A stretch of DNA of 64,000 bases from Oscillospiraceae bacterium. Its GTDB lineage: Bacteria > Bacillota > Clostridia > UMGS1883. The stretch spans positions 321 through 64,320 of the forward strand of contig SVJW01000005.1 of NCBI GenBank assembly GCA_015068735.1. Direction: 5' to 3'. A model generated the notes under the pieces. It was given only the letters and a program-made list of their open reading frames with translations, made no database searches and was not told the origin of the DNA. The position numbers were made by a program, and so were the translations under genes. Of the stretch, positions 8,267 through 23,635 are shown one piece after another; position 1 is the stretch's first letter, and every line of letters begins with the position of its first letter.

Positions 8267-8823
8267 TAGCAGATAATGACAGAAGCGGTTATTTCGGAGC
8301 AAGTGACACACCGTACATAATCGGGAACACAGAAACAAAGAGCTTTGAAAAATGGTGGCTTGAAAAGTGCGGAATACTTCGCAACACCTTCATCAATGAT
8401 GCTATGTGCGCAGGAACGCATTACGAACATAAAATCCTTGAACATATAGGCGTTGAAAATATGGACAGGCAGATTATCATTGAGGATTTGAAGCTTCGGG
8501 TTAATCTTGATGGGGATATGAATCGGAAGATATACGAGGTTAAAACATACAAGCGCGAGAACGGATTTAAAGTACCTAAGAGGTATGTTAATCAGGTTAA
8601 TGTTCAAATGTTTGCTACAGGCTTCAGAAGTGCTGATATTGTTGCATACGGACTTACCGAGTATGATTATAGGAATTACTTCAACCCGATAGATGATGAG
8701 AGGTTATCCTTTCACCCGGTAGAGTATGACGAACGGTGGATAAACAATATATATCTTCCGAGGTTAGAGTACTTTGCAGAATGCTTGAAGAAAGGAGTAA
8801 TGCCAAGATGTTTGAAGCAGTAG
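8263..8823 (+). CDS. YqaJ-like PD-(D/E)XK recombination exonuclease
   Basis: 186 aa. GASDTPYIIG, GTHYEHKILE and DGD...YEVKT motifs. ATGA overlap with the annealase gene. Confidence 0.7.
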   Translation: MIADNDRSGYFGASDTPYIIGNTETKSFEKWWLEKCGILRNTFINDAMCAGTHYEHKILEHIGVENMDRQIIIEDLKLRVNLDGDMNRKIYEVKTYKRENGFKVPKRYVNQVNVQMFATGFRSADIVAYGLTEYDYRNYFNPIDDERLSFHPVEYDERWINNIYLPRLEYFAECLKKGVMPRCLKQ

Positions 8824-9446
8824 GTGAAATATATAAAGTCAAGGACGGCCGTGCAATTATAGTTGCTGACATAGACCCTTACAAGGCAGAACGGCAGGAA
8901 ATAAAAAGTTGCTTAGTTCGGTATGATGACGGACGACATATATCAGCTGATCAGAGACGAAAAATATACGCCACAATTGCGGACATAGCAGAATATACCG
9001 GTAATGCTCCTGAAATGGAAAAGGCTTTGCAGAAATTCTTTTACATAGAGCGGTACGGGGTGGATTATTTCAGCCTTTCAAATTGTACTGTGACAGAAGC
9101 AAGAGAGTTTATCAACTATCTTATAGACTTCTGCTTTGAGAATAATATCGGAACCCGGGACACTCTTTTGAATCGTACCGATGACATAAGCAGATATTTG
9201 TATTCTTGTCTCATAAATCGTAAATGTGCGGTATGTAATCAGAGGGCAGATATTCATCATTGCGAGGGTTCGCGTATCGGTATGGGTTTCAACCGCCGTA
9301 AGGTAAACAATATCGGAAGATTTGCTATAGCTCTTTGTCGAAAGTGTCACAGTATTGCACATAACGATGAAAAAGGATTCTTTGAAAGAAATCATATCTA
9401 CGGTGTACAGCTTGATGCATATGCCGTAAAGAAATTAAAACTGTGA
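8808..9446 (+). CDS. Phage protein with C-terminal HNH-like Cys/His motif (DUF968-like)
   Basis: 212 aa from ATG 8808 (AAAGGAG 8791-8797). CAVCNQRADIHHC...ALCRKCHSIAHND. Confidence 0.5.
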   Translation: MFEAVGEIYKVKDGRAIIVADIDPYKAERQEIKSCLVRYDDGRHISADQRRKIYATIADIAEYTGNAPEMEKALQKFFYIERYGVDYFSLSNCTVTEAREFINYLIDFCFENNIGTRDTLLNRTDDISRYLYSCLINRKCAVCNQRADIHHCEGSRIGMGFNRRKVNNIGRFAIALCRKCHSIAHNDEKGFFERNHIYGVQLDAYAVKKLKL

Positions 9447-9455
9447 GGTGGTTTT

Positions 9456-9677
9456 ATGAAGAAACCGACACAATGCGAAAGAATTATACAGTATATGAAA
9501 GATTTCGGAAGTATAACAACGCTACAAGCATTTACGGATTTGGGCTGTACGAGACTTGCAAGTAGGGTTAATGATTTAAGGAATCAAGGCTATGACATAA
9601 AGAGCGAATTTGTTTCAGGGAAGAACAGATATGATGAAACGGTGAGCTACAAAAAGTATTATTTAGGAGAGATTTAA
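9456..9677 (+). CDS. Small winged-helix/HTH phage protein
   Basis: 73 aa. CERIIQYMKDFGSITTLQAFTDLGCTRLASRVNDLRNQGYDI is typical of small phage wHTH proteins. Confidence 0.6.
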   Translation: MKKPTQCERIIQYMKDFGSITTLQAFTDLGCTRLASRVNDLRNQGYDIKSEFVSGKNRYDETVSYKKYYLGEI

Positions 9678-9682
9678 ATTGT

Positions 9683-10528
9683 ATGGAAGAGGTAAAGTGG
9701 ATAAAAATTCACGTTAATATGTTTTCAAACAGAAAGATAAAATTGATACGTTCTATGAAAAACGGAGATAGTTTTGTACTTCTGTGGACGATGCTTCTTA
9801 CTGCTGCCGGTCGATGTAATGCTGATGGGAAATTATACATAGCGGATGGCGTTCCTTATACAGAGGATATGTTTGCTACAGAGTTCGATATGAAGGTTTC
9901 TATTGTCAGAGATGCATTGCAAGAATTTGAGAAATTCAAGATGATTTCCCGAATTGATGGGGTTTATTGCGTTCTCGGTTGGAGCGAATATCAAAATATA
10001 GAAGGCATGGATAAGATAAGAGAACAGACGCGAAAACGCGTTGAGAAGTACCGCGACAAGAAAGAAATTGCAATAAAGGACAACGTTACTTGTAACGCTA
10101 AAGTAACTCCGTGTAACGTTACAAGTAACGTTACGGTAACGCAATGTAACGCAACAGATATAGAAATAGATAAAGAAGAAAGAAATAAGAATATATTATC
10201 TACTACTATTAAGGCGTACGAGAAGCATATTGGAGCAATTACCGAAGTGACAGCTGAAGCTATTTCGGAGTGGCTTGAAAAAGGTGCTGACTCTTCGCTT
10301 ATTATATTTGCCTTTGAACAGGCGGTGGAATATAACGCAAGAAGTTGGAAATATGCTGAGAAAATTATAAGCACACATTTTAATGCCGGGCGAAAAACAA
10401 GAACGGCTGCTGAAAACTTCGGAAAGAAAAAGACCGACAAGAAAAAAAGCGGTTCATATGAGCCTGACGATATGGCGGCTATGGAACGAAAAATGAGACT
10501 TGAAAGGATGAAAAATAATGCTGAATAA
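9683..10528 (+). CDS. Phage replisome organizer (N-terminal rep-organizer domain + DnaD-like C-terminus)
   Basis: 281 aa. WIKIHVNMFSNRKIKLIRSMKNGDSFVLLWTMLLTAAGRCNADGKLY. The C-terminal part resembles a DnaD domain. Confidence 0.8.
   Translation: MEEVKWIKIHVNMFSNRKIKLIRSMKNGDSFVLLWTMLLTAAGRCNADGKLYIADGVPYTEDMFATEFDMKVSIVRDALQEFEKFKMISRIDGVYCVLGWSEYQNIEGMDKIREQTRKRVEKYRDKKEIAIKDNVTCNAKVTPCNVTSNVTVTQCNATDIEIDKEERNKNILSTTIKAYEKHIGAITEVTAEAISEWLEKGADSSLIIFAFEQAVEYNARSWKYAEKIISTHFNAGRKTRTAAENFGKKKTDKKKSGSYEPDDMAAMERKMRLERMKNNAE
10081..10155 (+). repeat. GTAACG iteron cluster inside the replisome-organizer gene (candidate phage ori)
   Basis: CAACGTTACTTGTAACGCTAAAGTAACTCCGTGTAACGTTACAAGTAACGTTACGGTAACGCAATGTAACGCAAC: at least 7 GTAAC(G) units in both orientations within 75 bp. 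Confidence 0.5.
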
Positions 10529-10907
10529 AGTAATTTTAATGGGTCGGCTTACACGTGACCCGGAACTCAGAAGCACACCGCAGGGAGTAAGCACCTGCAG
10601 TTTCTCATTGGCAGTAGACCGTAGCTTTGTCCGTGAAGGAGAAGAACGCAAAGCGGATTTTATAAACTGCGTTGCGTGGAGACAGACCGCGGAGTTTATT
10701 TCTAAATACTTCAAGAAAGGAAATATGGTTGCTCTTGAGGGGAGCATTCAAACTCGCTCTTGGGACGATCAGGACGGAAAGAAGCATTATGTAACTGAGG
10801 TTATTGTAAGTCAGGTATATTTTGCCGAGGGGAAGAGAGAATCCGAAGACGCTCCGGCAGAAATAGATATGGGTGATGATGACGATTTGCCATTCTCTGT
10901 GAGGTGA
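10518..10907 (+). CDS. ssb: Single-stranded DNA-binding protein
   Basis: 129 aa. MLNKVILMGRLTRDPELR OB-fold signature and acidic C-terminal DDDDLPF tip. Confidence 0.9.
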   Translation: MLNKVILMGRLTRDPELRSTPQGVSTCSFSLAVDRSFVREGEERKADFINCVAWRQTAEFISKYFKKGNMVALEGSIQTRSWDDQDGKKHYVTEVIVSQVYFAEGKRESEDAPAEIDMGDDDDLPFSVR

Positions 10908-10911
10908 CGGG

Positions 10912-12822
10912 ATGAGTTTATTTGTAGATAACTTTGCTGGTGGCGGTGGTGCTTCCACCGGAATTGAAATGGCAATAGGCAGAAGTGTGGATATAGCAAT
11001 CAATCACGACCCTGATGCTATAGCAATGCACAAAGCGAATCATCCTAACACACGTCATTACTGTGAAAGTGTGTGGGAAGTAGACCCTGAAGAAGCCTGT
11101 GAGGGTGAAGAAGTTGCTCTTGCCTGGTTCTCTCCCGATTGCACACACTTCTCAAGAGCAAAGGGTGGCAAGCCTGTAGATAAGAATATCAGAGGTCTTG
11201 CGTGGGTAACTATCAAATGGGCGTATGCAGTAAGACCAAAAGTAATAATGCTTGAGAATGTTCCCGAAATACAGACGTGGGGACCACTTGACAATAACGG
11301 AAAACCTATAAAAGAGCGTAGCGGAGAAACTTTCAACGGATTTATTGCCGTGCTTACTACAGGATTATCCAAAGAACACCCCGCATTTATTGAGATGTGT
11401 GCTGCACTTGAAATTGATGTTTATTCACGTATGGCTTCTGAGCTTTCAAACGGATTGGGATATGATGTGGATTTCAGAATACTCCGTTCCTGTGATTACG
11501 GTGCGCCTACAACGCGTACACGGTTTTACATGATTGCAAGAAGTGACGGTAGAAAGATTGTATGGCCTGAACCTACACATGCGCCAAAGGACAGTATAGA
11601 GGTCAGATGCGGTATGCTTCAACCTTACAGAACAGCAGCGGAGTGTATTGATTGGAGTATTCCTACACAGAGTATTTTTGAAAGGGATAAACCTCTTGCG
11701 GAAAATACTCTTAAGCGAATTGCAAGAGGTATAAAGAAGTTTGTAATTGATAATCCTGAACCGTTTATTATTCATTATAAGTTTGATAATGAGCCAGAAA
11801 GTGTTAATAAGCCACTTTCTACAGTTACATCAGTAAACAGCCATTATGTGGTAACCCCTACGATTATGTGTAACAATACAGGGAATGTAGGAGCGAGCGC
11901 AGATTCTCCATTGCCGACTGTAACAACCGGAAACAGAAATTTTGTAGTCGCACCTTCAATAGTTCCCGTAGGGTATGGCGAAAGGAAAGGACAGAAACCA
12001 AGAGTGAGCGATATAGAAGAGCCGTTAAGCACGGTGGTAGGAAGCAGTAAGCATTATCTTACAATGCCAATACTCACTACCTTTAACCAAAATAGTAGTG
12101 GACAGATAATAGATAGACCCATTGATACTGTTATGGCAGGTGCGACAAGATTTGGTCTTATATCACCTACCCTTATTCAGTATCACAGTGAACAGAATGA
12201 GGGCGAAGTAAGAGGGCAAGAACTCACAGAACCAATAATGACAATTGACACAAATCCCAGGTATGCCTTATCGGTAGCACACATTATGAAAAATTACGGA
12301 GGTAATTATAAGGGCGCAGGAAGTTCAGTGGATAAGCCTCTCGATACAGTAACGGCAAAAGACCATAACGAGCTTGTAACTGCTCATATAGTAACGCTTC
12401 GGAATAATATGGACGGTCAGCCTATGGATGAACCTTTGACAACAATATCCTGTAGCGGAGCACACCACGCAGAAGTAGAAGCTTTTCTTGTAAAGTATTT
12501 TTCTACTGGTTCACCGAAACCTATAGATGCACCTCTTGATACGCTGACTACAAAGGACAGATATGCTTTGGTAACTATTCATGGAGAAGATTATATCATT
12601 GTTGATATTCGTATGAGAATGCTTCAGCCAAGAGAATTATTTAACGCGCAGGGATTCCCAAAGGATTACATAATCGAACACGATCCGGAAGGAAACCCAT
12701 ACCCGAAGACAAAGCAGGTAGCGAGATGTGGCAATGCGGTTACTCCTCCTGTGCCGGCGGCTATGGTAAGAGTTAATCTACCTGAATACTGTGAAGAAAT
12801 ACAAAAGGTGGTGACAACATGA
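10912..12822 (+). CDS. DNA (cytosine-5) methyltransferase with expanded repeat-containing variable region
   Basis: 636 aa. Motif I FAGGGGASTG, motif IV SPDCTHFS, motif VI ENV, motif IX QPRELFNAQGFP, motif X GNAV. No cognate endonuclease nearby. Confidence 0.9.
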   Translation: MSLFVDNFAGGGGASTGIEMAIGRSVDIAINHDPDAIAMHKANHPNTRHYCESVWEVDPEEACEGEEVALAWFSPDCTHFSRAKGGKPVDKNIRGLAWVTIKWAYAVRPKVIMLENVPEIQTWGPLDNNGKPIKERSGETFNGFIAVLTTGLSKEHPAFIEMCAALEIDVYSRMASELSNGLGYDVDFRILRSCDYGAPTTRTRFYMIARSDGRKIVWPEPTHAPKDSIEVRCGMLQPYRTAAECIDWSIPTQSIFERDKPLAENTLKRIARGIKKFVIDNPEPFIIHYKFDNEPESVNKPLSTVTSVNSHYVVTPTIMCNNTGNVGASADSPLPTVTTGNRNFVVAPSIVPVGYGERKGQKPRVSDIEEPLSTVVGSSKHYLTMPILTTFNQNSSGQIIDRPIDTVMAGATRFGLISPTLIQYHSEQNEGEVRGQELTEPIMTIDTNPRYALSVAHIMKNYGGNYKGAGSSVDKPLDTVTAKDHNELVTAHIVTLRNNMDGQPMDEPLTTISCSGAHHAEVEAFLVKYFSTGSPKPIDAPLDTLTTKDRYALVTIHGEDYIIVDIRMRMLQPRELFNAQGFPKDYIIEHDPEGNPYPKTKQVARCGNAVTPPVPAAMVRVNLPEYCEEIQKVVTT

Positions 12823-13508
12823 GGAAATGCGAATACTGTGGTAAAGAGTTTGAGCCGAAGCAAAGCAGAAGTAAATATTGTAGCAGGGAATGTCAGGTAA
12901 AAGGTTTTCATGCAAGCAGACCAAAAGGGGAAACAAAGAAGTGCAAGTGGTGCGGAAAAGAATTTTTTGCACCACATAAGGGGATAAAATATTGCAGTCT
13001 TCTTTGTAAGATGAAAGCAGCGGATGAGCAACGTACTATAATTGCGGAGCAGAAGAAACAAGAGAAGAAACCTATCAAGTGTAAACATTGTGGAGCTGAG
13101 TTCGTTCCACGGCATAAAAGGCAAATATTTTGTTGCGAACAATGCGGATATGAATATCGTTATGAACATACTCCCAAAAAGAAATCGAAAGGAATAAGGG
13201 AATACAACTCCCGAATTTGCGCGATTTGCGGTAAGGAGTTTGTTCCGAGTAATTCAATACAGAAATATTGTTCAAAAGAATGTAGTCGCAAAGCTCAATA
13301 TAGTAAAAACAAGAAAGAAATCGTTGTAAACTCAGAAAGACCCAAGAAGAAAACTGCAAAAATATCTCCTGCGTCACAATGGTTTGCAAAGATGTCTTTG
13401 CGTGAGATTTCAGAAGAGTGTGCAAGGTTACATATTAGCTATGGCAAAGCTTCTTTGATGGCGATGAATAATATGTTGCCTGAGGATTTTGGAAAGAGGT
13501 GTAAATAG
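12819..13508 (+). CDS. Zn-ribbon repeat protein (4 x CxxCGxxFxP...YCSxxC), hypothetical
   Basis: 229 aa. Four tandem copies of about 45 aa of the CxxC...C(S)xxC module, then a helical C-terminus. Confidence 0.6.
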   Translation: MRKCEYCGKEFEPKQSRSKYCSRECQVKGFHASRPKGETKKCKWCGKEFFAPHKGIKYCSLLCKMKAADEQRTIIAEQKKQEKKPIKCKHCGAEFVPRHKRQIFCCEQCGYEYRYEHTPKKKSKGIREYNSRICAICGKEFVPSNSIQKYCSKECSRKAQYSKNKKEIVVNSERPKKKTAKISPASQWFAKMSLREISEECARLHISYGKASLMAMNNMLPEDFGKRCK

Positions 13509-13729
13509 TGGCGCAGAAAACAGAAATTGTGTGTGACAGATGCGGCAAGGATATAGTAAATCCTATGAAATGCTATTGCCCCACATATGCCTTAAAGAAT
13601 TATTCAGCAAAGATAACGCTGTGGCCCGTAGGAGAACCGAGAAGTAGTTTCGGACAGAGAGTAGACCTGTGTCCTGAATGTTACGAAGCGTTTGTAAACT
13701 TTATGGACGGAGGTGTAACCAATGACTGA
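13508..13729 (+). CDS. Small Zn-ribbon protein, hypothetical
   Basis: 73 aa. CDRCG...CPECYE. GTG start overlapping the previous stop. Confidence 0.5.
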   Translation: MAQKTEIVCDRCGKDIVNPMKCYCPTYALKNYSAKITLWPVGEPRSSFGQRVDLCPECYEAFVNFMDGGVTND

Positions 13730-14117
13730 ACTTGAAATGTTGGAAGCTGAAAAGTACTGGTGTGAAAATTGCTGTAACTGGGATAAAGAAAATTTGCTTC
13801 CAGACGGATATGCCAACTGCAAAGTAACCGGAACACTTTGCTTCGCCCAGGAAAGCGGAAAAGAATGCAAGTGCTTTAACGTACCGGCAGAGAATGTAAT
13901 TGTACTGCCTTGTAAGGTGGGTGATGTGGTGTATGTGATACGATATGCACCAATAAGTCAACGGTATTACATAAAAGAAATCATCGCAAAAGTTATTATC
14001 AGCATAAACGAGTATTTTTACTTAGAAGATGACGGCAAAAAGTTTATGTTTGGAGAAAAAGCTTTTGCATCCAAAGAAGAAGCAGAAGCGAAGCTGAAAG
14101 AAGGTGTGCAGGGGTGA
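13722..14117 (+). CDS. Cys-rich hypothetical protein
   Basis: 131-aa ORF in operon register. No recognised motif. Confidence 0.5.
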   Translation: MTELEMLEAEKYWCENCCNWDKENLLPDGYANCKVTGTLCFAQESGKECKCFNVPAENVIVLPCKVGDVVYVIRYAPISQRYYIKEIIAKVIISINEYFYLEDDGKKFMFGEKAFASKEEAEAKLKEGVQG

Positions 14118-14127
14118 ATTATAGATA

Positions 14128-17100
14128 TTGCACCGAAGTATGTTCGTTATGTGGAATAGAACACCCAAAAAGGGACTTGAACAAAATATACATATCTTAC
14201 GGACACGTATCTATATCATAGAGCAAGATATTGAAAAAGATGGCGGAATGATGAATATAATGAAGCTTATTTCTGCAATCGAGGGCAGAGGATATGGCTA
14301 TATAGGCTCCCAGAAATCCATTGATACTGCAAAGGCAGTAATGAACTTTGTGCAGGGCAGGGCTACAGAAGTTGATAGCTCACTTATAAGCAGAAGTAAT
14401 GGTGCTACAATGCTTCTTACGGCTATCGAGGGGAATAAAAAGGCGTGGGACAGTGTTGATAAGGCGGCAGGGCGTGAACTTGCTCCTGCTAAAACAAAAA
14501 CAACCCAAGGAATTCAAGATGTGGCAAAAGCTGTAAAAAACACAACAATATCCGAAGGAAATGTGTACACCAAAGACGGTATAAAGGCGACTATAGGTGA
14601 TGTCAAAATCGAAAACAATATTGTTGTAGATGCGGAAAGTGTTTCTTTTAAGAATGACGATGCAAAAGGATACGGAGTTCTTGAGAAATGGGCGACAGAA
14701 CTTAAAAAGCCAGTTAAACTTGTAAAAGGCTTGTACAATGAAAACGGAGATATACTTGACGGTGTGGAAACCGACAGCGGTATTTTCATCAATACAGAGG
14801 CGAAGAATCCCATAAAGTGGGCGGCGACACACGAATTCAGCCATACTATGAAAAAGAGTGCCGGTGAAGCATGGGCGAAATATCAGAACTTCGTAGTGGA
14901 CAAGATGAAGAAAGACGGTAGCTACTACGATGTATTCAATATGAAAGCTATTGCGTACGGAACAAGAGATGCAGCATACATCAATGAAGAAATTGCTTGC
15001 GATCACATCGGAGAAACCTTTGACAGTGTGGATGAGCTTGCAGACTTTATTAAAAAAGACAGAGGACTTGCGGTAAGAGTGCGTGACTTCTACTACAAAG
15101 CTCTTGACAAGCTCGGTCTCCTTGATGAAAAGAAAAAAGCACAACTTATGTGGCGTGATGCCTACAGAAAAGCTGTGCTGAATGTGAAGGATGGCAAAGT
15201 TGAGAGTACTGGGAAAACTGTTGAAAAAAGCGTAAGCGGAACGAGAGTGAGCGAAACTAACGGTGATGACAAAATTACTGCTGATATGGATGAGCATAAA
15301 AGGGCGGAAATATTAAAAAAGACCTCGCTTAATGTTGTGGAAGCAAAGTCAGATGCACTAAAATTGACACTTGAAGAAATTAATATCTTAGAAAGTAAGT
15401 GCAAAAGCAAAGCACAAGGCGTTATGGAAGAACTATGTGAGAAGTTCGGAGTAGTCAAAGAAGGATACACAAACAACAACATTGAGTTGGAATTTAATTA
15501 TTCAAAAGGTTCTCTCAGGGAAAGTGTACATAAGCAGAACGAAAGAAATCCTAATTTTCAGGATTTCGCAAAAATGCTCACAGTTTTCGATTCAGTCGTA
15601 AAAAATGCGGTGCCTATTGAAAGTCATACAGATAAATACAAAGGAACAAAAAAAGAAAATCCCAATCTTAAACAAAGTTATGTGCTTCTAAGTGCATTTA
15701 AGAGTGGCGAAGATATTGCTCCGGTAGAGTTGAATATTCGAGAGTTTAAAAAGTCGGTAGGAAGCAGATTATATATGTCTGTAACTCTTAAAAAAATAAG
15801 AGCCGACATCTTGGCGCCATACGATGTAAAAGAACAACGAAATGGCACTCCGTCAACTCTCAATATCAGTATAGCAGAGCTTATAAAAAATGTCAATCCT
15901 TCTGATGGAGATTTCTTAAGATATGCTCCTGATGAAATGCTTAATGAGGCGCAAATTGAATCAAAGAGAGAAGCTTTGGAGAGAGACAGACTGAAGATTG
16001 AGGGTTTAAAAAAATCAATAAGAGGTACCCGACTCAGCGATGTTGACAGCTCACCTGCAGGTGAAAGCGTGGACACCACTACCGAAGATACATCGCAGAA
16101 ATTCATTCCTCCCGGTGCTGAGCCGAGGCGTGATGTGAAAGTACCTGAAAGCGTGGAAGAAGATACAAAAGTAAGGCAGTTTGCGAGAACGGCGGCAGAG
16201 GCGGAAACACTTACTGATAAAACGGCAGAGGGTGTACTGGAAAATGTAGAAAAGGGTAAGTTTAACTATACACCTATATCGAATAAGAGTGCAATGAAGA
16301 ATGCCTACGCTTCACTTGACACAATGGGAGTTGAGTGGGTGGAAAAGAAGGTAAACGGTGCGATTTCTTCCCACAATCTTGATAAGAAAACGGTAGCGAT
16401 GGCAGAAGTGTTATTGGAGAAGTATAGTCAGGAAGGGCAGGAAGAAAAGGCGCAGAGGCTTATTATTGACTTTGCGGCAGAAAGCACCAGAACGGCACAG
16501 ATCCTGCAGGCAATAAGTATGCTGAAGAAGTTAGACCCGAACTACGAGGTAGCTTACATAGAGAAGGTTATTCAGAACCTTAAAGAAGAGATTGTCGAAA
16601 GAAACAATAAGAAGTTCGGAAAGAAACATTCGACAGATATAGAGGTATCGGAAGAGCTTAAAACAAAGCTTATGGAAGCAAAGACCGAAGAAGAGAGAGA
16701 AACAATCCGAGATGAAATCTATACGGAGATTGCAGACCAGTTACCTAATACATGGATAAACAAGTGGAATGCGTGGCGATATATGTCAATGCTCGCCAAT
16801 GCGAGAACCCATGTGCGAAATGTGGTAGGTAACACCGCCTTTATGCCGATGATTGCTACAAAGAATATCGCAGCTAAGTTTGTGGAGCCGATTGTGGCGA
16901 AAGCGACAGGTGGCAAGATAGAGCGAAGCAAAACCTTTATAGTGCCAAAGAAGTACAGGCAGTTTGCAATGGAAGATGTAGAGGTAATGCGAAAGGAACT
17001 GCAAGGCGGTGGTAAACACAATCCGTCGGATATTATAAGGGATAAGCAGAGGGTGTTTGACACCAAAGCTCTTGAATGGATGAGGGTGAAAGTGGGAGAA

Positions 17101-19110
17101 AGCCTTGAAGCTGAAGACTGGATTTTCCTTAGACACCATTACAAAGCAGCTCTCAGTAATTACCTTGCGGCAAACAAGATTGACCTTGACAATATGAGTG
17201 AGGCTACGCTTGACAGGGCGAGAAGAGTCGCTATTAAAGAAGCGCAGAGAAATACATACCGAGATGCGAGTGCGTTTGCAAATGCGCTGAGTAACTTCTC
17301 AAAGAAAAATGCAGGTGCGGCATTATTGGTAGAAGGCTTGATGCCTTTTAAGAAAACCCCTGTAAATATATTAAAAAGAAGTGTAGAATATAGCCCTGCA
17401 GGACTTGTTAAGGCACTGACAACGGATTTATACAAGGTTAGTAAAGGCGATATGACTGCCAGTGAGTATATAGACAGAATATGCTGCTCTTTTACGGGAA
17501 CGGGAGTTGTAGCACTGGGAATGTTTTTAAAATCTCTTGGCGTTATTTCCGGTGCATCAGATGACGACAAGGAAAAGGAATTTGACGAGCTTACAGGTGT
17601 ACAGAATTATTCATTGACAATTGGTGGTCACAACTATACGCTCGACTGGTTGGCGCCGTTTTCTCTTCCATTCTTCACAGGTGTGGAGATGCAGAACACA
17701 ATAGATAAAGGTGAAAATATAGGTTTTCGTAACGGGGTTGAGGCACTCAGCAATATGTCAGAACCGTTTTTTGAAATGAGTATGTTACAGGGACTGACGG
17801 GTACTGTTGATACTATTAAGCAGTCTAACTCTTCCGAAATTGCCGGAAATGTTGCGTGGAATATTGGCACAAATTATGTTAATCAAGCTGTACCGACTCT
17901 TTTCGGACAGGTTGCAAGAACTGTTGACGGAACTCAGAGAAGAAGCTACGATGACAAGAATAAAGATGTACCGAGTGATGTACAGTATTTTGTGCAGGGC
18001 TTGATGAAGAAGATTCCGGGGGATTCGCAGAACCTTGAGCCTTATGTTGATGAGTGGGGCAGAGAAAAGAAAACTGAGAATGTGGGTGTAAGAGCTTTTC
18101 AGAATATGCTTTCGCCCGGCTATTATTCTACTGTGAAGATAAGTCCTATGGAAAAAGAGCTTAAAAGGCTTTACGGTGAAGTCGGAGACGAGGACGGTAT
18201 GAAGATATTCCCGACAGCAGCGGCAAAAAACTTTGAACTTGACGATGGCACAAAGAAGAATCTTACTGCAACGGAATATACTGAGATGCAGACGGTACAG
18301 GGACAGACGGCATATAATCTTTTGACAGAGATTGTTAAGACCGATGAATACAAGAAAGCTGATGATTACACGAAGGGTGTAATTGTAAGCAAGGTATATG
18401 AGGCGGCAAGTGCTAATGCGAGATATACGGTATCTGAGGGAGAAAAAACAAGTAACACTGCATGGGTTAATGAAACCGTTGGAATGCTTCAAGATGGAGA
18501 TTCAAAAGGTGCAATGAATCATATTATAAAAAGTGGCGTGGAAAAGGTTGAAGGAGAAAAGTTTACAGCCGCAAAGGACGGATACAAAGATAAATTCGAG
18601 TATGATGCATCGCAGTACAGTGAAGCGGAAATAAAGATATTTGATACTGTGGAAAGTGACTGGGCAGGTTACCATGCAAGTGTTGATATGGGCAGAGAAT
18701 TGGAAGATTCGGATTATAAATATATCAGGTTGTATGAGGAGAATCTTTCCGATGATATGCCGATTGAAGAATATGCAGGCGTAAGGGCATATGTAAAAAC
18801 AGAAGCAATTAAATCCGACCCCGAGGGTAGCGAGAATAATTTGTCATCAAAAGAACTTCAAGATTACCTTGACAGTACAGATTACAATGAAAATGTAAAG
18901 GGAGCATTATTTATGGCTCTTGGAGGTTCTACGTGGATTAATCCCTATACGGGACTTAAGAATAACGGCGAAGTACCAAAGGGAAAGAGCGGTTCCGGTA
19001 GCAGTTCGGGCGGAAGCTCCGGTGGAAGAACTTCCTCAAGATCGAGTTCGAGGACAACCTCAAGAACAACAAGGTCTACAAGATCCACAACAAGGCGGTC
19101 TAACAGATAA
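14128..19110 (+). CDS. Giant (about 1620-1660 aa) virion-associated polyvalent-type protein with zincin HExxH motif and Ser/Arg/Thr-rich basic tail
   Basis: Uninterrupted 4.98-kb ORF. HEFSH at 14830-14844. C-terminal GKSGSGSSSGGSSGGRTSSRSSSRTTSRTTRSTRSTTRRSNR. The start is ambiguous: the track uses TTG 14128, and ATG 14248 (MMNIMKL) is an alternative. It occupies the slot upstream of scaffold and capsid. Confidence 0.75.
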   Translation: MHRSMFVMWNRTPKKGLEQNIHILRTRIYIIEQDIEKDGGMMNIMKLISAIEGRGYGYIGSQKSIDTAKAVMNFVQGRATEVDSSLISRSNGATMLLTAIEGNKKAWDSVDKAAGRELAPAKTKTTQGIQDVAKAVKNTTISEGNVYTKDGIKATIGDVKIENNIVVDAESVSFKNDDAKGYGVLEKWATELKKPVKLVKGLYNENGDILDGVETDSGIFINTEAKNPIKWAATHEFSHTMKKSAGEAWAKYQNFVVDKMKKDGSYYDVFNMKAIAYGTRDAAYINEEIACDHIGETFDSVDELADFIKKDRGLAVRVRDFYYKALDKLGLLDEKKKAQLMWRDAYRKAVLNVKDGKVESTGKTVEKSVSGTRVSETNGDDKITADMDEHKRAEILKKTSLNVVEAKSDALKLTLEEINILESKCKSKAQGVMEELCEKFGVVKEGYTNNNIELEFNYSKGSLRESVHKQNERNPNFQDFAKMLTVFDSVVKNAVPIESHTDKYKGTKKENPNLKQSYVLLSAFKSGEDIAPVELNIREFKKSVGSRLYMSVTLKKIRADILAPYDVKEQRNGTPSTLNISIAELIKNVNPSDGDFLRYAPDEMLNEAQIESKREALERDRLKIEGLKKSIRGTRLSDVDSSPAGESVDTTTEDTSQKFIPPGAEPRRDVKVPESVEEDTKVRQFARTAAEAETLTDKTAEGVLENVEKGKFNYTPISNKSAMKNAYASLDTMGVEWVEKKVNGAISSHNLDKKTVAMAEVLLEKYSQEGQEEKAQRLIIDFAAESTRTAQILQAISMLKKLDPNYEVAYIEKVIQNLKEEIVERNNKKFGKKHSTDIEVSEELKTKLMEAKTEEERETIRDEIYTEIADQLPNTWINKWNAWRYMSMLANARTHVRNVVGNTAFMPMIATKNIAAKFVEPIVAKATGGKIERSKTFIVPKKYRQFAMEDVEVMRKELQGGGKHNPSDIIRDKQRVFDTKALEWMRVKVGESLEAEDWIFLRHHYKAALSNYLAANKIDLDNMSEATLDRARRVAIKEAQRNTYRDASAFANALSNFSKKNAGAALLVEGLMPFKKTPVNILKRSVEYSPAGLVKALTTDLYKVSKGDMTASEYIDRICCSFTGTGVVALGMFLKSLGVISGASDDDKEKEFDELTGVQNYSLTIGGHNYTLDWLAPFSLPFFTGVEMQNTIDKGENIGFRNGVEALSNMSEPFFEMSMLQGLTGTVDTIKQSNSSEIAGNVAWNIGTNYVNQAVPTLFGQVARTVDGTQRRSYDDKNKDVPSDVQYFVQGLMKKIPGDSQNLEPYVDEWGREKKTENVGVRAFQNMLSPGYYSTVKISPMEKELKRLYGEVGDEDGMKIFPTAAAKNFELDDGTKKNLTATEYTEMQTVQGQTAYNLLTEIVKTDEYKKADDYTKGVIVSKVYEAASANARYTVSEGEKTSNTAWVNETVGMLQDGDSKGAMNHIIKSGVEKVEGEKFTAAKDGYKDKFEYDASQYSEAEIKIFDTVESDWAGYHASVDMGRELEDSDYKYIRLYEENLSDDMPIEEYAGVRAYVKTEAIKSDPEGSENNLSSKELQDYLDSTDYNENVKGALFMALGGSTWINPYTGLKNNGEVPKGKSGSGSSSGGSSGGRTSSRSSSRTTSRTTRSTRSTTRRSNR

Positions 19111-19225
19111 AAGTAAAGGCAGGCATATAGGGTAACCTATGTGCCTGCTGTTTTTTTGTGGGGCACCGATACTTGAAAAAGATATGATATAATAAATCTA
19201 TGAAACACAGAGAGGAGCCGAAAAT

Positions 19226-20128
19226 ATGGAAGGCAATTCAATGGAGCTTAATATTCAGAGATTCGCAGAGGGCGGTTCTGATGGTACAAGCTCGAGCGGA
19301 AACGCGACAGTCGCTCAGTCGCAGTCGGGCGTAGAAGCGGAAGGTAATTCCGCAAATGTTCCTGTCGCCGGGGAGCAGAAAGAAAATCATTCCGCAATCG
19401 ATTTAAGCGCATATTCGGAGGAGCAACTCGAGGAGCTCATCGAGAAGAATCCTAATCTGAACAAAACTATGGGAAAAAAGTTTTCAGGTGCGTTTGGAAA
19501 AAGACTTGCGGAAGAAAGGTCAAAAATACAGGAAGAAATGAAACCTGTAAACGACCTTATTTACAAATTAATGGCAACACACAACGTTAACAGCTTTGAG
19601 GATCTTGCCAAAGTGTTAGACCCTTCTATGATTGAAACGTTTTCTATCGAAAACGGAACAGGAGAAAAAATTAGCCGAGAAATTATAGGAGTCAGAGCAG
19701 ATAACATCCGCAAAAACATTGAAGAAAAAGCGGCTAAAAAGTATCAAGACGAAATCGAAAGAAGGCGGTTTGTCGAACAAAAAACACGGGAAATGGATGA
19801 AGACATAAAACGCACAAAAGAAATTTATCCTAATTTTGACCCCAATGTCGAGATTAAAAATCCCGAATTCGGCAAATTGTTGAAAGCAGGCGTACCGGTA
19901 GAACACGCGTACAAGGTTCTTCATATGGATGAAATTGTTGAAGCTGCCAAGAAAGATACTGCAGCGGCATATGCGAAAAGCACAGCGCAGATGCAGGCAA
20001 GACCCAGTGAAAACGGTCTTGGTAATCAGGTAGCTGTTAACGGCTCGATGGATGTATCAAAGCTCACAAAGAAGGAACGCGCGGAGCTTGCAAAGAGAGC
20101 ACAGCGCGGTGAAACTATTACGTTCTGA
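19226..20128 (+). CDS. Scaffolding-like protein
   Basis: 300 aa. Acidic and coiled-coil-like, immediately upstream of the capsid gene. N-terminal MELNIQRFAEGG motif is shared with the capsid protein. Confidence 0.6.
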   Translation: MEGNSMELNIQRFAEGGSDGTSSSGNATVAQSQSGVEAEGNSANVPVAGEQKENHSAIDLSAYSEEQLEELIEKNPNLNKTMGKKFSGAFGKRLAEERSKIQEEMKPVNDLIYKLMATHNVNSFEDLAKVLDPSMIETFSIENGTGEKISREIIGVRADNIRKNIEEKAAKKYQDEIERRRFVEQKTREMDEDIKRTKEIYPNFDPNVEIKNPEFGKLLKAGVPVEHAYKVLHMDEIVEAAKKDTAAAYAKSTAQMQARPSENGLGNQVAVNGSMDVSKLTKKERAELAKRAQRGETITF

Positions 20129-20198
20129 AGAACGTAACGAAGGTGAGATAATGAGAATTATCACTTAGTAAAACGAAATGAAAAGGATGTGAAAAATT

Positions 20199-21224
20199 AT
20201 GTTCAGATTAAATATTCAGCACTTTGCTGCAGGTGAAAACGTACATACCACTTCCGGTATGGCGGCAAACAGCACAGGTGAGGTAACTCCCTACGGGGAA
20301 AGCGGCGGACTTTCCGCCGAAATGAAAACCTATTACTCCGATTATCTTATTGATATGGCGGAGCCTAAGTTGGTACATGATCAGTTCGGTCAGAAAGTAC
20401 CGATTCCCAAGAATAAGGGTAAGGTGGTGGAGTTTCGTAAGTACGATCCTCTTCCTGCTATTACTACCCCTCTTACTGAAGGTGTTACTCCTGAAGGTCA
20501 GAAGCTTGATGTAAAGACTATTACTGCAGAAGTTAAGCAGTACGGTGGCTTTATTGAGCTTTCTGATATCATTCAGCTTACTGCTATCGACAATAACCTT
20601 GTACAGGCTACAAAGCTTCTTGGCGGTCAGGCAGGAAGAACACTTGATACCATCGTAAGAGAAGTTCTTGCAGGCGGTACAAACGTACAGTTTGCAGAAG
20701 GTCAGGTTGACAGTCGTGATGCTCTTGTAGGAGGTCAGGCCGAAGGCAACCACTATCTTACAGTTGATGCGGTAAGAAAAGCAGTTCGTACTCTTAAGAG
20801 ACACAACGCCGAGACTATCAACGGTTCCTTTGTTGGTATTATTCATCCTGATGCAGCGTATGACCTTATGAGTGATCCCAAGTGGGTTAATGTAAAGACT
20901 TACTCCGACCCCGAGGGCATTTATCAGGGTGAAATCGGCAAGATTGAAAATGTCCGTTTCGTAGAAACAAGCGAAGCTAAGATTTTCGAGGGAGAAGGCG
21001 CTAACGGCGTTGACGTATATGCTACTCTTATCCTTGGCGAAAATGCTTACGGTTCCACCGAGATTTCCGGTGGCGGTCTTCGTCATATCGTTAAGCAGCT
21101 CGGCTCTGCCGGTGCTGCAGATCCTCTTGACCAGAGAGGTACAGCAGGCTGGAAGGCTACAAAGGCGGCTGTAAGACTTGTTGAGCCTTATATGGTTCGT
21201 ATCGAGACTGCAGCAAGTTTGTGA
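20199..21224 (+). CDS. Major capsid protein (N4-gp56-family / HK97-fold type)
   Basis: 341 aa. YYSDYLIDMAEPKLVHDQFGQKVPIPKNKGKVVEFRKY...TPLTEGVTPEG...GGFIELSD matches my recollection of the N4-gp56 capsid family. Strong codon bias. Confidence 0.8.
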   Translation: MFRLNIQHFAAGENVHTTSGMAANSTGEVTPYGESGGLSAEMKTYYSDYLIDMAEPKLVHDQFGQKVPIPKNKGKVVEFRKYDPLPAITTPLTEGVTPEGQKLDVKTITAEVKQYGGFIELSDIIQLTAIDNNLVQATKLLGGQAGRTLDTIVREVLAGGTNVQFAEGQVDSRDALVGGQAEGNHYLTVDAVRKAVRTLKRHNAETINGSFVGIIHPDAAYDLMSDPKWVNVKTYSDPEGIYQGEIGKIENVRFVETSEAKIFEGEGANGVDVYATLILGENAYGSTEISGGGLRHIVKQLGSAGAADPLDQRGTAGWKATKAAVRLVEPYMVRIETAASL

Positions 21225-21250
21225 TGATGTAACGGAAGGAGCTGGAAACA

Positions 21251-21580
21251 ATGGCCAGAAAGAACAATACTGAAAATGTGGAAACTACGGTGGTAGAAAA
21301 CGTTGCAAAAGAAGCTACTGTAGAAGAAGCTACTGTAAAAAATACCAAGTCTGAAAAGAAAATGGTTGAAATTGAGCTGTTCAAGGACAACAAGGACTAT
21401 AAGGACGATGTTTTCGTTTGTATCAACGGCAAAAACATTGTTGTAAAGCGCGGTGAAAAGGTCGAGATTCCCGAGGCTTACGCAAAGGTTATTGCACAGT
21501 CCAAAAAACAGGACAATGCAGCGGCTGACCTTATGGCATCCAAGCAGGATGAGTACCGTAAGGAAGCGGCAAAGCACTAA
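21251..21580 (+). CDS. Hypothetical head-associated protein
   Basis: 109-aa ORF directly after the capsid gene and before a hairpin terminator. Confidence 0.5.
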   Translation: MARKNNTENVETTVVENVAKEATVEEATVKNTKSEKKMVEIELFKDNKDYKDDVFVCINGKNIVVKRGEKVEIPEAYAKVIAQSKKQDNAAADLMASKQDEYRKEAAKH

Positions 21581-21592
21581 TAAAAACACCGC

Positions 21593-21625
21593 AAAGGCGG
21601 GGCGGATAATCGCCTCGCCTTTATT
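21593..21625 (+). terminator. Hairpin terminator after the capsid operon
   Basis: AAAGGCGGGGCG-GATAAT-CGCCTCGCCTTT: 12-bp stem with one G.U pair, then a short ATT/T-rich tail. Confidence 0.5.
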
Positions 21626-21649
21626 GTATATAAGAAAGGAAGAAGAAAT

Positions 21650-21925
21650 ATGTTAGAACTTAAAAATACTGTTACAATGATGAATAGCGAGGACTACAAA
21701 GAAAGATTTAAGGCTGAATATTATCAGACCAAAATCCGCTATGAGAAGCTTAAGGCTTTTAATACAAAGATTGAAGCGGCAAGAAGAACAGAATATACGG
21801 CAACGAAGATTACAATGCCTGCGCACGATTGCCCTGAAGGTTTGCTTCAGGAACAGCAAACTATTATGGGACGTTATTTGCACATTCTTGAGCTTCGTGC
21901 GGTTATAGAAGGAGTTGAACTGTAA
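21650..21925 (+). CDS. Small helical phage protein, hypothetical
   Basis: 91 aa. MNSEDYKERFKAEYYQTKIRYEKL...ILELRAVIEGVEL resembles a small family common in gut phages. Confidence 0.55.
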   Translation: MLELKNTVTMMNSEDYKERFKAEYYQTKIRYEKLKAFNTKIEAARRTEYTATKITMPAHDCPEGLLQEQQTIMGRYLHILELRAVIEGVEL

Positions 21926-22182
21926 TGGATACAAAAAAGTTTTTGGAAATTTGTGTTGACCTTGTTAAAAAGTACACAGAAGAACACCTGGATAAATCGG
22001 ATGGAAATGTGGAGTTTGACGTTTTTGTAGTATGGAACTGTAAAACCCTTCAAAATAATAAAGCTCTGCTTTCTACAACATTGTTTGATGGTATGTACTA
22101 CGAGGTTACATACAACGGAGATAAGAAAGAAATATACTTTGATGCTTATAAAAAGTTTGAAAACAGATGTATAAGCATTTAA
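21925..22182 (+). CDS. Hypothetical protein
   Basis: 85-aa ORF. Start overlaps the previous stop. Confidence 0.5.
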   Translation: MDTKKFLEICVDLVKKYTEEHLDKSDGNVEFDVFVVWNCKTLQNNKALLSTTLFDGMYYEVTYNGDKKEIYFDAYKKFENRCISI

Positions 22183-22195
22183 AGAGGGTGAAGTT

Positions 22196-22561
22196 ATGAC
22201 GGCAATGGAAGTTGTTGAAAAAGCAAAGAAGTCGGGTACGGTAAACGGTGTTGATGACGAAATGTTATACAACGCCGTAGAAAGACTTGAAATAATGATT
22301 CAGAAGTATACAGGTGTGCCGTTCAGGGAGTTTGAGAAAGAAGTTCCTCTCTTTGCTTGTGGCGGTGGTGTGGCTGACGGTTACGACGATATGTACGATA
22401 AGTATGTAAAACGTGAGGGATGCTATATCCGTGAAGACTGGGAGTGCTTCGGGAATTATGATGCTTTATTCAATATCGAATGGGATAAGTTCAAAAAAGA
22501 ATATTTAAGAAAGAACAAACCTGCAGGGCAGGGATTTACTCCCGATTGGAGATGGAATTAA
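22196..22561 (+). CDS. Hypothetical protein
   Basis: 121-aa ORF with GAGGGTGA RBS upstream. Confidence 0.5.
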   Translation: MTAMEVVEKAKKSGTVNGVDDEMLYNAVERLEIMIQKYTGVPFREFEKEVPLFACGGGVADGYDDMYDKYVKREGCYIREDWECFGNYDALFNIEWDKFKKEYLRKNKPAGQGFTPDWRWN

Positions 22562-22722
22562 TGATGGAGATACACGCAAGACAGGTAATTCTTGACGACA
22601 GACGCAATCTGCAGGAAGTTATAGAATCGATTATGGCGAAATTTGATTCTATGAGCACAGGGGCTGTGGAGACGGCTTCAGAGATAGTGGAAGAAGGTGA
22701 AACAGATGAGCAACAGATTTGA
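22561..22722 (+). CDS. Small acidic hypothetical protein (53 aa)
   Basis: Below the ORF-track cutoff. TAATG overlap with the previous gene. MMEIHARQVILDDRRNLQEV... Confidence 0.4.
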   Translation: MMEIHARQVILDDRRNLQEVIESIMAKFDSMSTGAVETASEIVEEGETDEQQI

Positions 22723-23635
22723 TCCTGATAAGGATTATATGGAAGAAATGAAAAGAAGCGCAGCGGCAGGTGATGAAGCAGGCTTTAACTCGGCGCAGAC
22801 TGCGAGAAACAGAAAGATTGATGCAACGGGTTCAGGTTATGCGAGAACGAACTACACCATGAAAGATTTTGCAAAGCAGAACGGTATTACTTCAGTTCCT
22901 GCTGTGCGTGTACCGGCGAATCCCTACCCCGGAAGAATGTGGGACGCGGAAACTGACCATGCACAGGAGAGTATCAATTCTGTAAAGAGAGGGGATATTC
23001 CCGGGGCAATGTATCATGAAAAGATGCACAATGACAAGGACGGTGCGCTGGGGCTTGGTTATGGTGCAAGCGGATACTGGAATTACTTGGACAAGCAAGG
23101 ACTTGGTGGTCTTCGTGAGGGTAAGCTCCGTGAGATTGAAGACTACTTCGGGAAAGACTTCGAGTATGATTACCGTGACGATGAGCGGTATCAGGCAATA
23201 AGACGGCTTAAAGAAAAGGAAGCTGACAAGGCATATGAAGACGGGTATGCGGCACTTTCAAGACAGTTTGACGGGGACATTCCCGTTAATATGATAAACA
23301 AGCTTCTTACTACCAAAGGTGAGATTATAGACCAGGCGGACAGTTATATTCCGACGCTTGAACAGATAGCGCGTGATATGTACTACAACAAGGGTAATCA
23401 GCTGTACAGTCAGTATGGATTGCTTAACAATCTCGTGCAGGAAGATAAACAGGATTTCTACACGGACAGAGACTTTGTTGCACAGGGTGTAATGAATAAT
23501 TACAACAACAGAAAGAGCGATGAAGCAACACGTTATAATGCATTGATGGATTTAGCGGCAATGTACTATAATGATGATCCCACCATTAACTGGGATGAAG
23601 CAATGAAGAGAGCACGGTCAAGCGACTATATTTGA
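22706..23635 (+). CDS. Hypothetical virion protein
   Basis: 309 aa from ATG 22706 (AGAAGGTG 7 nt upstream); the track starts at GTG 22697. Confidence 0.55.
   Translation: MSNRFDPDKDYMEEMKRSAAAGDEAGFNSAQTARNRKIDATGSGYARTNYTMKDFAKQNGITSVPAVRVPANPYPGRMWDAETDHAQESINSVKRGDIPGAMYHEKMHNDKDGALGLGYGASGYWNYLDKQGLGGLREGKLREIEDYFGKDFEYDYRDDERYQAIRRLKEKEADKAYEDGYAALSRQFDGDIPVNMINKLLTTKGEIIDQADSYIPTLEQIARDMYYNKGNQLYSQYGLLNNLVQEDKQDFYTDRDFVAQGVMNNYNNRKSDEATRYNALMDLAAMYYNDDPTINWDEAMKRARSSDYI

Follow-up and report, generated by a model that had tools for sequence, protein, structure and literature searches.

The left part of the 64,000-nucleotide stretch analysed here (the window) is occupied by a temperate podovirus prophage that is integrated in tRNA-Tyr and comes from a large family of gut and rumen phages of Clostridia. 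Its terS, terL and portal gene are entirely gone, and the giant ejection protein is missing its N-terminal third; the element therefore has no means of nucleating a portal vertex or pumping DNA. Our preferred reading, to which we give about an even chance, is of a prophage deficient in packaging that needs a helper in a satellite-like way; simple decay of a prophage is almost as probable.

Limits of the element and its early region

The last 17 nt of tRNA-Tyr (TCCATCCTCTCCCACCA) recur downstream, and this 17-bp repeat of the tRNA 3′ end delimits an element spanning about 28.4 kb. Its early region and right end comprise:

1–1101, reverse strand: tyrosine integrase, running off the left edge, with only its 3′ part in the window (in locus L004, called as a 382-aa protein with Phage_integrase)
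1309–1962, reverse strand: CI/LexA-like repressor with HTH and S24 peptidase (HTH_3 and Peptidase_S24; phrog_4 at 1e-41)
4113–6966, forward strand: diversity-generating retroelement (DGR) with two DUF6273 target genes, Avd, template repeat (TR) and reverse transcriptase
6983–12822, forward strand: recombination and replication module with DUF1064 resolvase, Sak, YqaJ, HNHc_6, DnaD-like replisome organiser, SSB and C5 DNA methyltransferase
28214–28230, forward strand: attR, a 17-bp copy of the tRNA-Tyr 3′ end

As the window's left edge cuts the integrase gene, the order of integrase and then tRNA-Tyr was seen in L004; tRNA-Tyr with attL lies ~200 nt to the left of the integrase part in the window. 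This excludes terminase and portal genes just left of the integrase, a location that the preliminary description of this DNA had left open. To the right of attR follow host genes (VWA/GDSL, ABC transporter, ComEC, CtsR-ClpC, ValRS). The att sites and host flanks set the limits of the element, and our view of it is thus complete. An identical gene order, at 99.9–100% identity, was found in 30 other fetched contig stretches from ~18 samples, which excludes an assembly artefact.

Every copy found is integrated, at one site and with 99.9–100% identity, and no contig examined showed an excised or circular junction. Both observations fit an ordinary defective (cryptic) prophage, in which terS, terL, the portal gene and the 5′ third of the giant gene disappeared through one or two deletion or recombination events, and which is now a dead end inherited vertically in one strain, its other genes still intact since the loss is recent. 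We regard this as a serious contender, somewhat short of an even chance. Defective prophages are common, which favours it in general terms, and the lack of an excised or circular junction also counts against a helper-dependent element.

The CI/LexA-like repressor, with its HTH and S24 peptidase domains, would probably render the element SOS-inducible. The DGR has a reverse transcriptase, Avd and a pair of template and variable repeats that differ at template adenines; its variable regions are identical across all samples and hence give no sign of current activity, a further point against helper dependence. The recombination and replication module contains no helicase and no other P-loop protein.

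Loss of the terminase and portal genes

The genes between the methyltransferase and the scaffold are laid out as previously noted, with three Cys-rich ORFs of 229, 73 and 131 aa and one of 1660 aa, and the earlier scaffold call is right by both position and homology:

12819–13508, forward strand: 229-aa protein (ZnF229) with four CxxC...YCSxxC zinc ribbons, ending in an HTH-like segment
13508–14117, forward strand: 73-aa and 131-aa Cys-rich ORFs (p73 and p131), without family matches
14128–19110, forward strand: 1660-aa ORF of a predicted giant polyvalent or internal-virion (ejection) protein
19118–19159, forward strand: strong intrinsic terminator behind the giant gene, a 14-bp stem followed by a T run
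19160–19225, forward strand: intergenic segment upstream of the scaffold gene, with an extended –10 element and a ribosome-binding site (alignment with L009 and L013)
19226–20128, forward strand: scaffolding protein, 300 aa (position and family homology; phrog_13908 at 4e-36)
20199–21224, forward strand: HK97-fold major capsid protein (MCP; Phage_capsid_3/4, phrog_1357 at 1e-89)

No protein of the element matched a terminase, portal or prohead protease in Pfam, PHROGs or NCBIfam. Family HMMs for TerL and portal, each built from 40 relatives and run with filters off over all six-frame segments of 1–29.5 kb, revealed no remnants of either gene; the top scores of 2.5 and 4.5 bits (E 1.7 and 0.43) are noise. 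The searches thus bear out the initial impression that no terminase or portal is recognisable. The reported lack of a genuine Walker A motif likewise holds: the pattern [GA]xxxxGK[STQ], scanned in six frames over 1–30 kb, gave three matches, all by chance:

18967: in the Ser/Gly tail of the giant protein
20330: antisense to the capsid gene
26899: within the amidase

The head module of the family usually has the order terS, terL (T4-type), portal (P22/SU10-type), scaffold and capsid gene. Among the 136 relatives whose sequence reaches 6 kb or more upstream of the capsid gene, 127 have a T4-type TerL and a P22-type portal immediately preceding scaffold and capsid. The junction where relatives place these two genes is represented in the window by the segment 19160–19225, with its extended –10 element TGATATAAT at about 19185–19193. 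The position of terL varies very often within the family; in L282 and L284 it lies downstream of the giant gene. Collinearity with L284, the closest collinear relative, shows that terL is gone at this junction, cleanly and between intact neighbours, with the terminator and the promoter-like element left in place. Such a clean loss, with the packaging genes alone missing, argues against ordinary decay, whereas the truncated giant gene adjoining the gap argues for it, as do other, remnant-like members of the family: L033, whose capsid module lies about 2.6 kb from the host mgsA gene, and isolated giant-gene fragments that stand alone in chromosomes. The truncation looks like damage and for this reason also counts against a helper-dependent reading.

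The frequent moves of terL, and the presence of two or more family members in several MAGs, would also suit portal and terminase genes located elsewhere in the same chromosome, either in a second defective prophage or in a split, domesticated locus, with the two loci jointly forming particles in the manner of a gene-transfer agent. We consider this clearly improbable: no terL or portal gene lies in the window's 36 kb of host DNA.

The preliminary description was correct that a prohead protease is missing; its view of this as an anomaly does not stand. In relatives of the family the scaffold gene alone separates portal and capsid gene, so the absence of a protease is normal for the presumed scaffold-only assembly of these phages. 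Scaffold homologues were found in 241 loci; in every layout inspected they immediately precede the capsid gene, and no protease was found in the element or in the relatives inspected.

The remaining late proteins

Downstream of the capsid gene the element continues with neck, tail and lysis genes:

21251–22561, forward strand: p109 (like Page gp7) and p121, small head/neck genes that flank an inserted pair, p91 (PF21825, crAss001_48) and p85 (DUF6275)
22561–23635, forward strand: 53-aa ORF and 309/312-aa virion protein (p312), following gene calls in L256
23678–26434, forward strand: p918, a putative podovirus tail nozzle/hub protein of 918 aa with a beta-propeller-rich fold (AlphaFold and Foldseek)
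26446–27180, forward strand: N-acetylmuramoyl-L-alanine amidase (endolysin; Amidase_2 at 7e-14, phrog_822)

The AlphaFold model of p918 (pLDDT 78.5) matched the SU10 tail, P22 gp10, T7 gp12, GP4 and VP1 in Foldseek (E 2e-12 to 1e-6), and the protein is predicted to be a podovirus nozzle like P22 gp10 and T7 gp12. Its homologues occur in 127 loci, 103 of which also have TerL and portal. p312 is limited to a small group of close relatives, with homologues in L009, L013 and six portal-carrying loci including L014, which also has TerL.

The giant gene likely starts at 14140–14248, and independent gene calls give a product of 1653 or 1656 aa. The protein has an HExxH motif near its N-terminus and a Ser/Arg-rich tail, and an N-terminal module of about 670 aa, conserved among relatives, is missing from it. 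Its conserved core (residues 621–1430 counted from 14248) is all-alpha and about 800 aa long. Against the PDB the core gave no match (best E 0.5), and none to a portal or terminase; among predicted structures in BFVD it matches internal virion proteins of cyanopodoviruses and a pelagiphage (E 4e-13 to 5e-9). The giant protein itself has no Pfam match at threshold, and homologues (E=0) carry LPD3, LPD23, PBECR3, ART-PolyVal and MuF_C domains. We accordingly take it to be an N-terminally truncated polyvalent ejection protein whose core has a predicted internal-virion-protein fold.

These assignments bear on the proposal that a hidden or novel portal and packaging motor resides in the giant or the small Cys-rich proteins, or that packaging proceeds without a terminase. 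Several late proteins lack a family annotation, which leaves some room for it. However, every large candidate coexists with the canonical genes in relatives: the scaffold, p109, p121, p312, p918, the giant protein and ZnF229 all have homologues in loci with canonical TerL and P22-type portal. ZnF229 resembles NinG/HNH proteins rather than a terminase, and homologues have an early-region position in L013. The only proteins without a homologue in the fetched loci are p131 and p85, which at 131 and 85 aa are too small for TerL or portal; p73, at 73 aa, is also too small, and the locus of its sole homologue carries both genes. The predicted folds of the giant core and of p918 speak against the idea as well, and a P-loop was found nowhere. 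We therefore reject concealment of packaging functions in these proteins, an unfamiliar packaging strategy has found no support, and a novel mode of packaging is very unlikely; as a whole, this explanation is extremely improbable. Of the three possibilities raised in the preliminary description, only a satellite or defective phage in need of helper packaging machinery is consistent with the data, and that one is supported.

Sister elements and selection

In the MCP tree the window element forms one clade with L009 and L013, and the three have in common a segment of ~75 nt upstream of the scaffold. No TerL or portal is present in the visible parts of L009 and L013, both of which are incomplete contigs. 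The three have diverged to dS 0.6–1.7, and all compared ORFs are intact. The dN/dS ratios are 0.06–0.10 for the capsid gene, 0.13–0.16 for p312, 0.135 for the giant gene and 0.2–0.36 for the scaffold gene; with these ratios, the structural genes are under strong purifying selection. The state without TerL and portal thus appears common to a diverged clade under selection, which argues against a defective prophage. Conversely, the incompleteness of L009 and L013 weakens the helper-dependent reading: together with the placement of terL downstream of the giant gene in L282 and L284, it means that at least terL could lie in the unseen parts, in which case part of the signal of purifying selection could predate the loss.

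Directly before the scaffold, L009 and L013 each have a small-terminase-like gene. In the relatives checked, homologues of the 158-aa gene of L013 (~100 BLAST hits) immediately precede TerL, and the 157-aa gene of L009 belongs to a family adjoining TerL; both proteins retain the family's C-terminal GVVM(M/L)PE motif. A retained TerS is a classic satellite device for redirecting the TerL of a helper, and its presence in the sisters counts for helper dependence. No TerS-like gene or motif is found in the window element, which counts against helper dependence and in favour of decay.

Relatives with TerL and portal co-occur with these elements: L026 shares a MAG bin with L013, and others, e.g. L139 and L280 in sample 3300022661, share metagenomes with the window element. 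These are possible helpers. None is visible in the 64-kb window itself, a further point against the helper-dependent reading.

Comparison with known systems

The closest known system is that of the P22/SU10-like temperate podoviruses in Firmicutes. By capsid protein, Bacillus phage Page (36% identity) and the genus Pagevirus are nearest among cultured phages; among uncultured ones, prophages of Clostridia/Oscillospiraceae and IMG/VR contigs of about 38–42 kb come nearest. The element is like P22/SU10-like podoviruses in its HK97-fold capsid, gp7-like neck protein, predicted nozzle of the P22 gp10/T7 gp12 type, internal virion protein, apparent scaffold-only assembly without a protease, and gene order from the scaffold on. 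It is unlike them in having no terS, terL or P22-type portal and in its size, about 28 kb versus about 40 kb. The giant protein is homologous to polyvalent proteins of 2000–2900 aa with LPD3, LPD23, LPD38, PBECR3, ART-PolyVal and MuF_C domains (Iyer et al. 2017, PMC5512222), but it has no ~670-aa N-terminal module, stays below the Pfam threshold and has a core resembling internal virion proteins of T7-like podoviruses.

Like the capsid-forming satellites (cf-PICIs and the Streptomyces satellites MulchRoom and MiniFlayer), the element is integrative, has its own capsid and scaffold proteins and would need a helper for part of its virion. In those satellites TerS, TerL, portal and capsid protein are self-encoded and the tails are borrowed (PMC10690885; bioRxiv 10.1101/2022.09.08.507074). 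Here the division of labour is reversed: shell, nozzle, ejection protein and lysin are present, portal and motor are not. The element therefore falls outside the cf-PICIs, which are defined by TerS/TerL, portal, protease and capsid genes and no tail genes. The sisters L009 and L013 resemble PICIs/SaPIs with their own TerS in having a TerS-like gene and, in their visible parts, no TerL. PICIs, however, measure 10–15 kb and lack genes for capsid, tail and lysis, and the window element, with 28.4 kb, a capsid protein, a nozzle, an amidase and no TerS, is not one of them.

In general terms the element does resemble a satellite, as essential packaging genes are absent and its own functions for integration, regulation and replication are present. 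An intact SOS-type repressor is retained, as are the integrase, the genes for replication and recombination, scaffold, capsid, neck proteins, nozzle, ejection protein and endolysin; known satellites do not typically carry tail and lysis genes in full, which counts against helper dependence. What argues for helper dependence is that the loss of the packaging genes appears to be maintained, given one clade, a common segment, low dN/dS and intact ORFs. After induction, a helper-dependent element would excise and replicate, and its own shell and tail parts would be expressed; a transmissible particle would form only if a co-resident or superinfecting relative supplied portal and terminase in trans. 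It is possible, if rather doubtful, that the window element, L009 and L013 belong to a kind of satellite not described before, an ‘inverse capsid-forming satellite’, which would provide its own shell, nozzle, ejection protein and lysis, would steal portal vertex and terminase motor from a helper podovirus related to it, in the sisters via the retained TerS, and would have been under selection since the loss.

A bounded prophage without terminase and portal genes

The integrase gene runs past the left edge of the window, and a tRNA-Tyr lies just beyond it on contig L004 (99.99% identity to the window). Positions 28214-28230 are a second copy of the last 17 nt of this tRNA, and the right flank is host DNA (VWA/GDSL protein, ABC transporter, ComEC, CtsR-McsB-ClpC, PFK, ValRS). 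The tRNA, the repeat and the host flank together delimit an element of ~28.4 kb that is wholly visible; terminase and portal genes therefore do not lie to the left of the integrase, a placement allowed for in the preliminary description and now excluded by the tRNA-Tyr of L004. Candidates on the minus strand past the lysin, and in the remainder of the window, were also rejected, the genes there being of the host. Another 30 fetched contig stretches, taken from ~18 samples, have the same architecture at the same chromosomal site with 99.9-100% identity, which rules out misassembly; the samples were probably drawn from a few related cohorts, making the assemblies independent but not the populations. 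Two structures adjoin attR on its right side (28231-28343), namely a hairpin flanked by a T run on each side (28233-28268) and a perfect 49-nt palindrome (28295-28343); both probably serve the host locus as bidirectional terminators.

The order of ORFs between the methyltransferase and capsid genes matched the one described previously:

4113-6966, diversity-generating retroelement (DGR): VR1 4620-~4690, VR2 5164-~5234, TR 5677-~5745
10912-12822, C5 methyltransferase, upstream of the late ORFs
after the methyltransferase and before the giant ORF, three small Cys-rich ORFs (229, 73 and 131 aa)
14128-19110, giant ORF (1660 aa), probable start at 14140-14248
from 19226, 300-aa gene in the scaffold position, ahead of the capsid gene
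from 20199, HK97-type capsid gene
3' of the capsid gene, small genes, a 309/312-aa gene (p312), a 918-aa gene (p918) and an amidase gene (end 27180)

The methyltransferase is unusually long (636 aa) and matches its Pfam family in three separate stretches, suggestive of a large insertion or of an extra domain fused to it. At 21650-22182, between two head/neck genes, a crAss001_48-family gene (PF21825; 'Sequestin' in another Pfam copy) is accompanied by a DUF6275 gene; the pair, which is missing at the corresponding spot in relatives L009, L013 and L284, looks like a moron or anti-defence cargo.

No late ORF matched a terminase, portal or protease in Pfam, PHROGs or NCBIfam, and no TerS was found in the element. 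TerL and portal HMMs built from the phage family and applied unfiltered to each six-frame segment of positions 1-29.5 kb gave only noise, indicating that both genes are lost and have left no remnant; a tblastn search with the TerS, TerL and portal sequences of Bacillus phage Page and of relatives L002, L003 and L010-L012 likewise recovered no pseudogenes in the window. The claimed lack of terminase and portal is thus borne out by profile searches, family HMMs and tblastn. A six-frame search of 1-30 kb for the Walker A pattern returned three matches, in the Ser/Gly tail of the giant protein, inside the amidase and antisense to the capsid gene. All three are due to chance, as had been said of the tail match, previously taken for the single exception. 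The reported absence of a protease also stands, but it is not an anomaly: it is normal for this family, in whose inspected members a putative scaffold is the sole gene between portal and capsid. P22 and T7 have the same scaffold-only arrangement.

Packaging genes in the phage family

Page, a podovirus whose genes run TerS, TerL, gp3, portal, scaffold, capsid, has a major capsid protein (MCP) 36% identical to that of the element; the MCPs of unannotated phage contigs from human faeces, in which these genes are arranged alike, reach 50-53% identity. Scans of bacterial genomes, of IMG/VR and of metagenomes yielded ~500 relatives apiece, chiefly in MAGs and isolates of Clostridia and Oscillospiraceae; a length of 38-42 kb is common among the complete-looking contigs, and representatives carry a T4-type TerL (Terminase_6N/Terminase_3) and a P22/SU10-type portal according to Pfam. 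Of the loci that extend 6 kb or more upstream of the capsid gene (136 in all), family HMMs placed both TerL and portal upstream of scaffold/capsid in 127, and four had a portal without TerL. Both genes were missing from the window, from L033 and L088, and from a contig represented twice, as L008 and L013; L009 and L087, with shorter flanks, likewise show neither gene.

Within this one family terL is strikingly plastic in its position: TerS-TerL-portal, TerL-small gene-portal, portal-TerL-scaffold, giant-TerL-scaffold and giant-TerL-nozzle orders were all encountered (L010, L061, L014, L034, L002, L282, L284), and a small HTH gene precedes terL in some relatives and follows it in others. A search of IMG/VR with the L284 TerL for a complete genome of the L284 type returned only relatives of the standard arrangement. 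In many relatives (L039, L047, L050-L056, L059, L061-L069 and others, with the capsid gene at ~10001-11320) the MCP has a ~100-aa insertion (~439 versus 341 aa), which could be a decoration/insertion domain or an intein.

L088 (1-10978), grouped here with L087, is a prophage of the cultured isolate Massiliimalia timonensis Marseille-P3753. As in the window, its giant gene (at least 2935 aa) is followed directly by scaffold and capsid with no intervening terL, and no portal is present within 10 kb; L088/L087 could represent a second TerL-less lineage. In L033 (5868-10990), which lacks TerL and portal, the scaffold-capsid module starts ~2.6 kb from host mgsA, and this locus is probably a truncated prophage remnant.

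The junction upstream of the scaffold gene

The closest collinear relative of the element is L284, with the order giant, TerL, scaffold, capsid, 88, 121, (holin), 52, 313, nozzle, (SLH), amidase. Homology between the two passes straight from the C-terminus of the giant protein to the ribosome-binding site of scaffold, skipping the L284 terL, whose place in the window is taken by a strong terminator (19118-19149) together with an extended -10 element. A ~75-nt segment upstream of scaffold is common to the window, L009 and L013 and missing from L284. The window giant protein also lacks a ~670-aa N-terminal module conserved in relatives.

Candidates for a hidden portal or motor

Homologues of scaffold (241 loci), the small late protein p109 (223 loci), nozzle p918 (127 loci), the small late protein p121, p312, the giant protein and the 229-aa Cys-rich protein all occur in loci that also bear canonical TerL and portal, and hence none of them can stand in for TerL or portal. 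The 131-aa and 85-aa proteins had no homologue in the fetched loci.

The giant protein belongs to the polyvalent proteins; its homologues range over 2000-2900 aa, with LPD3, LPD23, LPD38, PBECR3, ART-PolyVal and MuF_C domains. It had no match in PDB by sequence. The AlphaFold model of its conserved ~800-aa core (pLDDT 71) is all-alpha and matched no PDB fold (best E 0.5); it resembles predicted structures, both of polyvalent proteins and of proteins named 'internal virion proteins' from T7-like cyanopodoviruses and one pelagiphage. The model thus makes the giant a predicted ejection or cargo protein, and a portal or TerL concealed in it was rejected on these comparisons. Fragments of giant genes, 78-82% identical to parts of the window giant, also occur alone in bacterial chromosomes (L253 1985-6016, L254 10001-13996, L255 10001-12889): one beside an IS200-type Y1 transposase, one flanked by TspO and by a two-component system, and the third at a prophage end, after an amidase.

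The p918 model (pLDDT 78.5) matches podovirus nozzles (SU10 tail, P22 gp10, T7 gp12, GP4, VP1), and a portal is present alongside it in 103 loci, so that p918 is not the portal. Given this co-occurrence and the other folds of the giant core and p918, the earlier suggestion of a hidden portal or packaging protein is rejected. That of an unfamiliar packaging strategy is likewise abandoned, and hidden or novel machinery of any kind is highly improbable.

Sister elements and selection

In the capsid-protein tree the window clusters with L009 and L013, two other elements without visible TerL/portal. The three are well diverged (dS 0.6-1.7), with dN/dS of 0.06-0.10 for capsid, 0.13-0.16 for p312, 0.135 for giant and 0.2-0.36 for scaffold; all genes compared are intact and under purifying selection despite the divergence.

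L013 and L009 each have a small HTH protein immediately ahead of scaffold. That of L013 matches Terminase_5/HTH_23, and its homologues lie directly 5' of TerL in the relatives checked among ~100 BLAST hits; the family of the L009 protein also adjoins TerL. Both keep the family C-terminal motif GVVM(M/L)PE. Small TerS-like proteins whose body sequences are of two unrelated kinds have in common a C-terminal (H/Q)(S/T)GVV(M/I)(M/L)P(E/P), which may be a TerL-binding tail; it was found in the following genes:

L013 8507-8983
L009 580-1053
L045 4318-4803
L053 6530-7075
also L062, L065 and L137

PICIs hijack the terminase of a helper by means of TerS without TerL. L009 and L013 are partial contigs, and terL could sit in their unseen parts, given its positions in L282 and L284; a portal downstream of the capsid gene is without precedent among loci where a portal was found.

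Helper dependence or decay

The reading proposed earlier of a satellite or defective phage in need of helper packaging is supported, and we put the chances that the element is a packaging-deficient prophage dependent on a helper at about even. Relatives with TerL and portal are present in metagenomes that contain the element, and one (L026) is binned in the MAG of L013; the two have only the capsid gene in common (76% nucleotide identity), indicating no specific link. No helper phage is visible in the 64-kb window, and that portal and terminase reside elsewhere in the host genome is quite unlikely.

A prophage in plain decay is nearly as probable. The selection on genes of the three sisters speaks against decay, whereas the truncated giant, the missing TerS and the lack of an excised form or attP junction in any contig are caveats to helper dependence; odd ends of L281 and L278 were rejected as such a junction, being merely 47-104 nt of contig-end noise. 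The DGR is complete, with two paralogous DUF6273 targets, each with a VR at its 3' end, Avd, TR and reverse transcriptase, and its repeat copies differ mainly at TR adenines. Several assemblies of the element break at the VRs. The VRs are identical across all other contigs and samples of the element, which makes the DGR uninformative as a sign of life.

Relation to known satellites

The element, if functional, would be a new variant of satellite; otherwise it is one more defective prophage of familiar type. Classical PICIs lack capsid and lysis genes. cf-PICIs and MulchRoom/MiniFlayer have genes of their own for TerS, TerL, portal and capsid protein, and their tails are borrowed (PMC10690885; bioRxiv 10.1101/2022.09.08.507074). 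Whereas cf-PICIs steal only tails, elements of the present type, if mobilised, would take only portal and motor, which is the reverse. Literature searches, directed in part at satellites, turned up no satellite with its own shell, nozzle and lysin yet without portal and motor.

As a decaying prophage alone, the element would have modest value as a well-bounded example of which genes go first, with a map of a large, poorly annotated Clostridia podovirus family in which terL is mobile in position and the ejection proteins are giant and polyvalent. In prophage annotation such elements are scored 'incomplete', although gut communities may still exchange genes through them. If the elements are mobilised, phage parasitism can target portal and motor alone, and the capsid shell of a satellite would be able to assemble on a foreign portal, making portal-scaffold compatibility directly testable.
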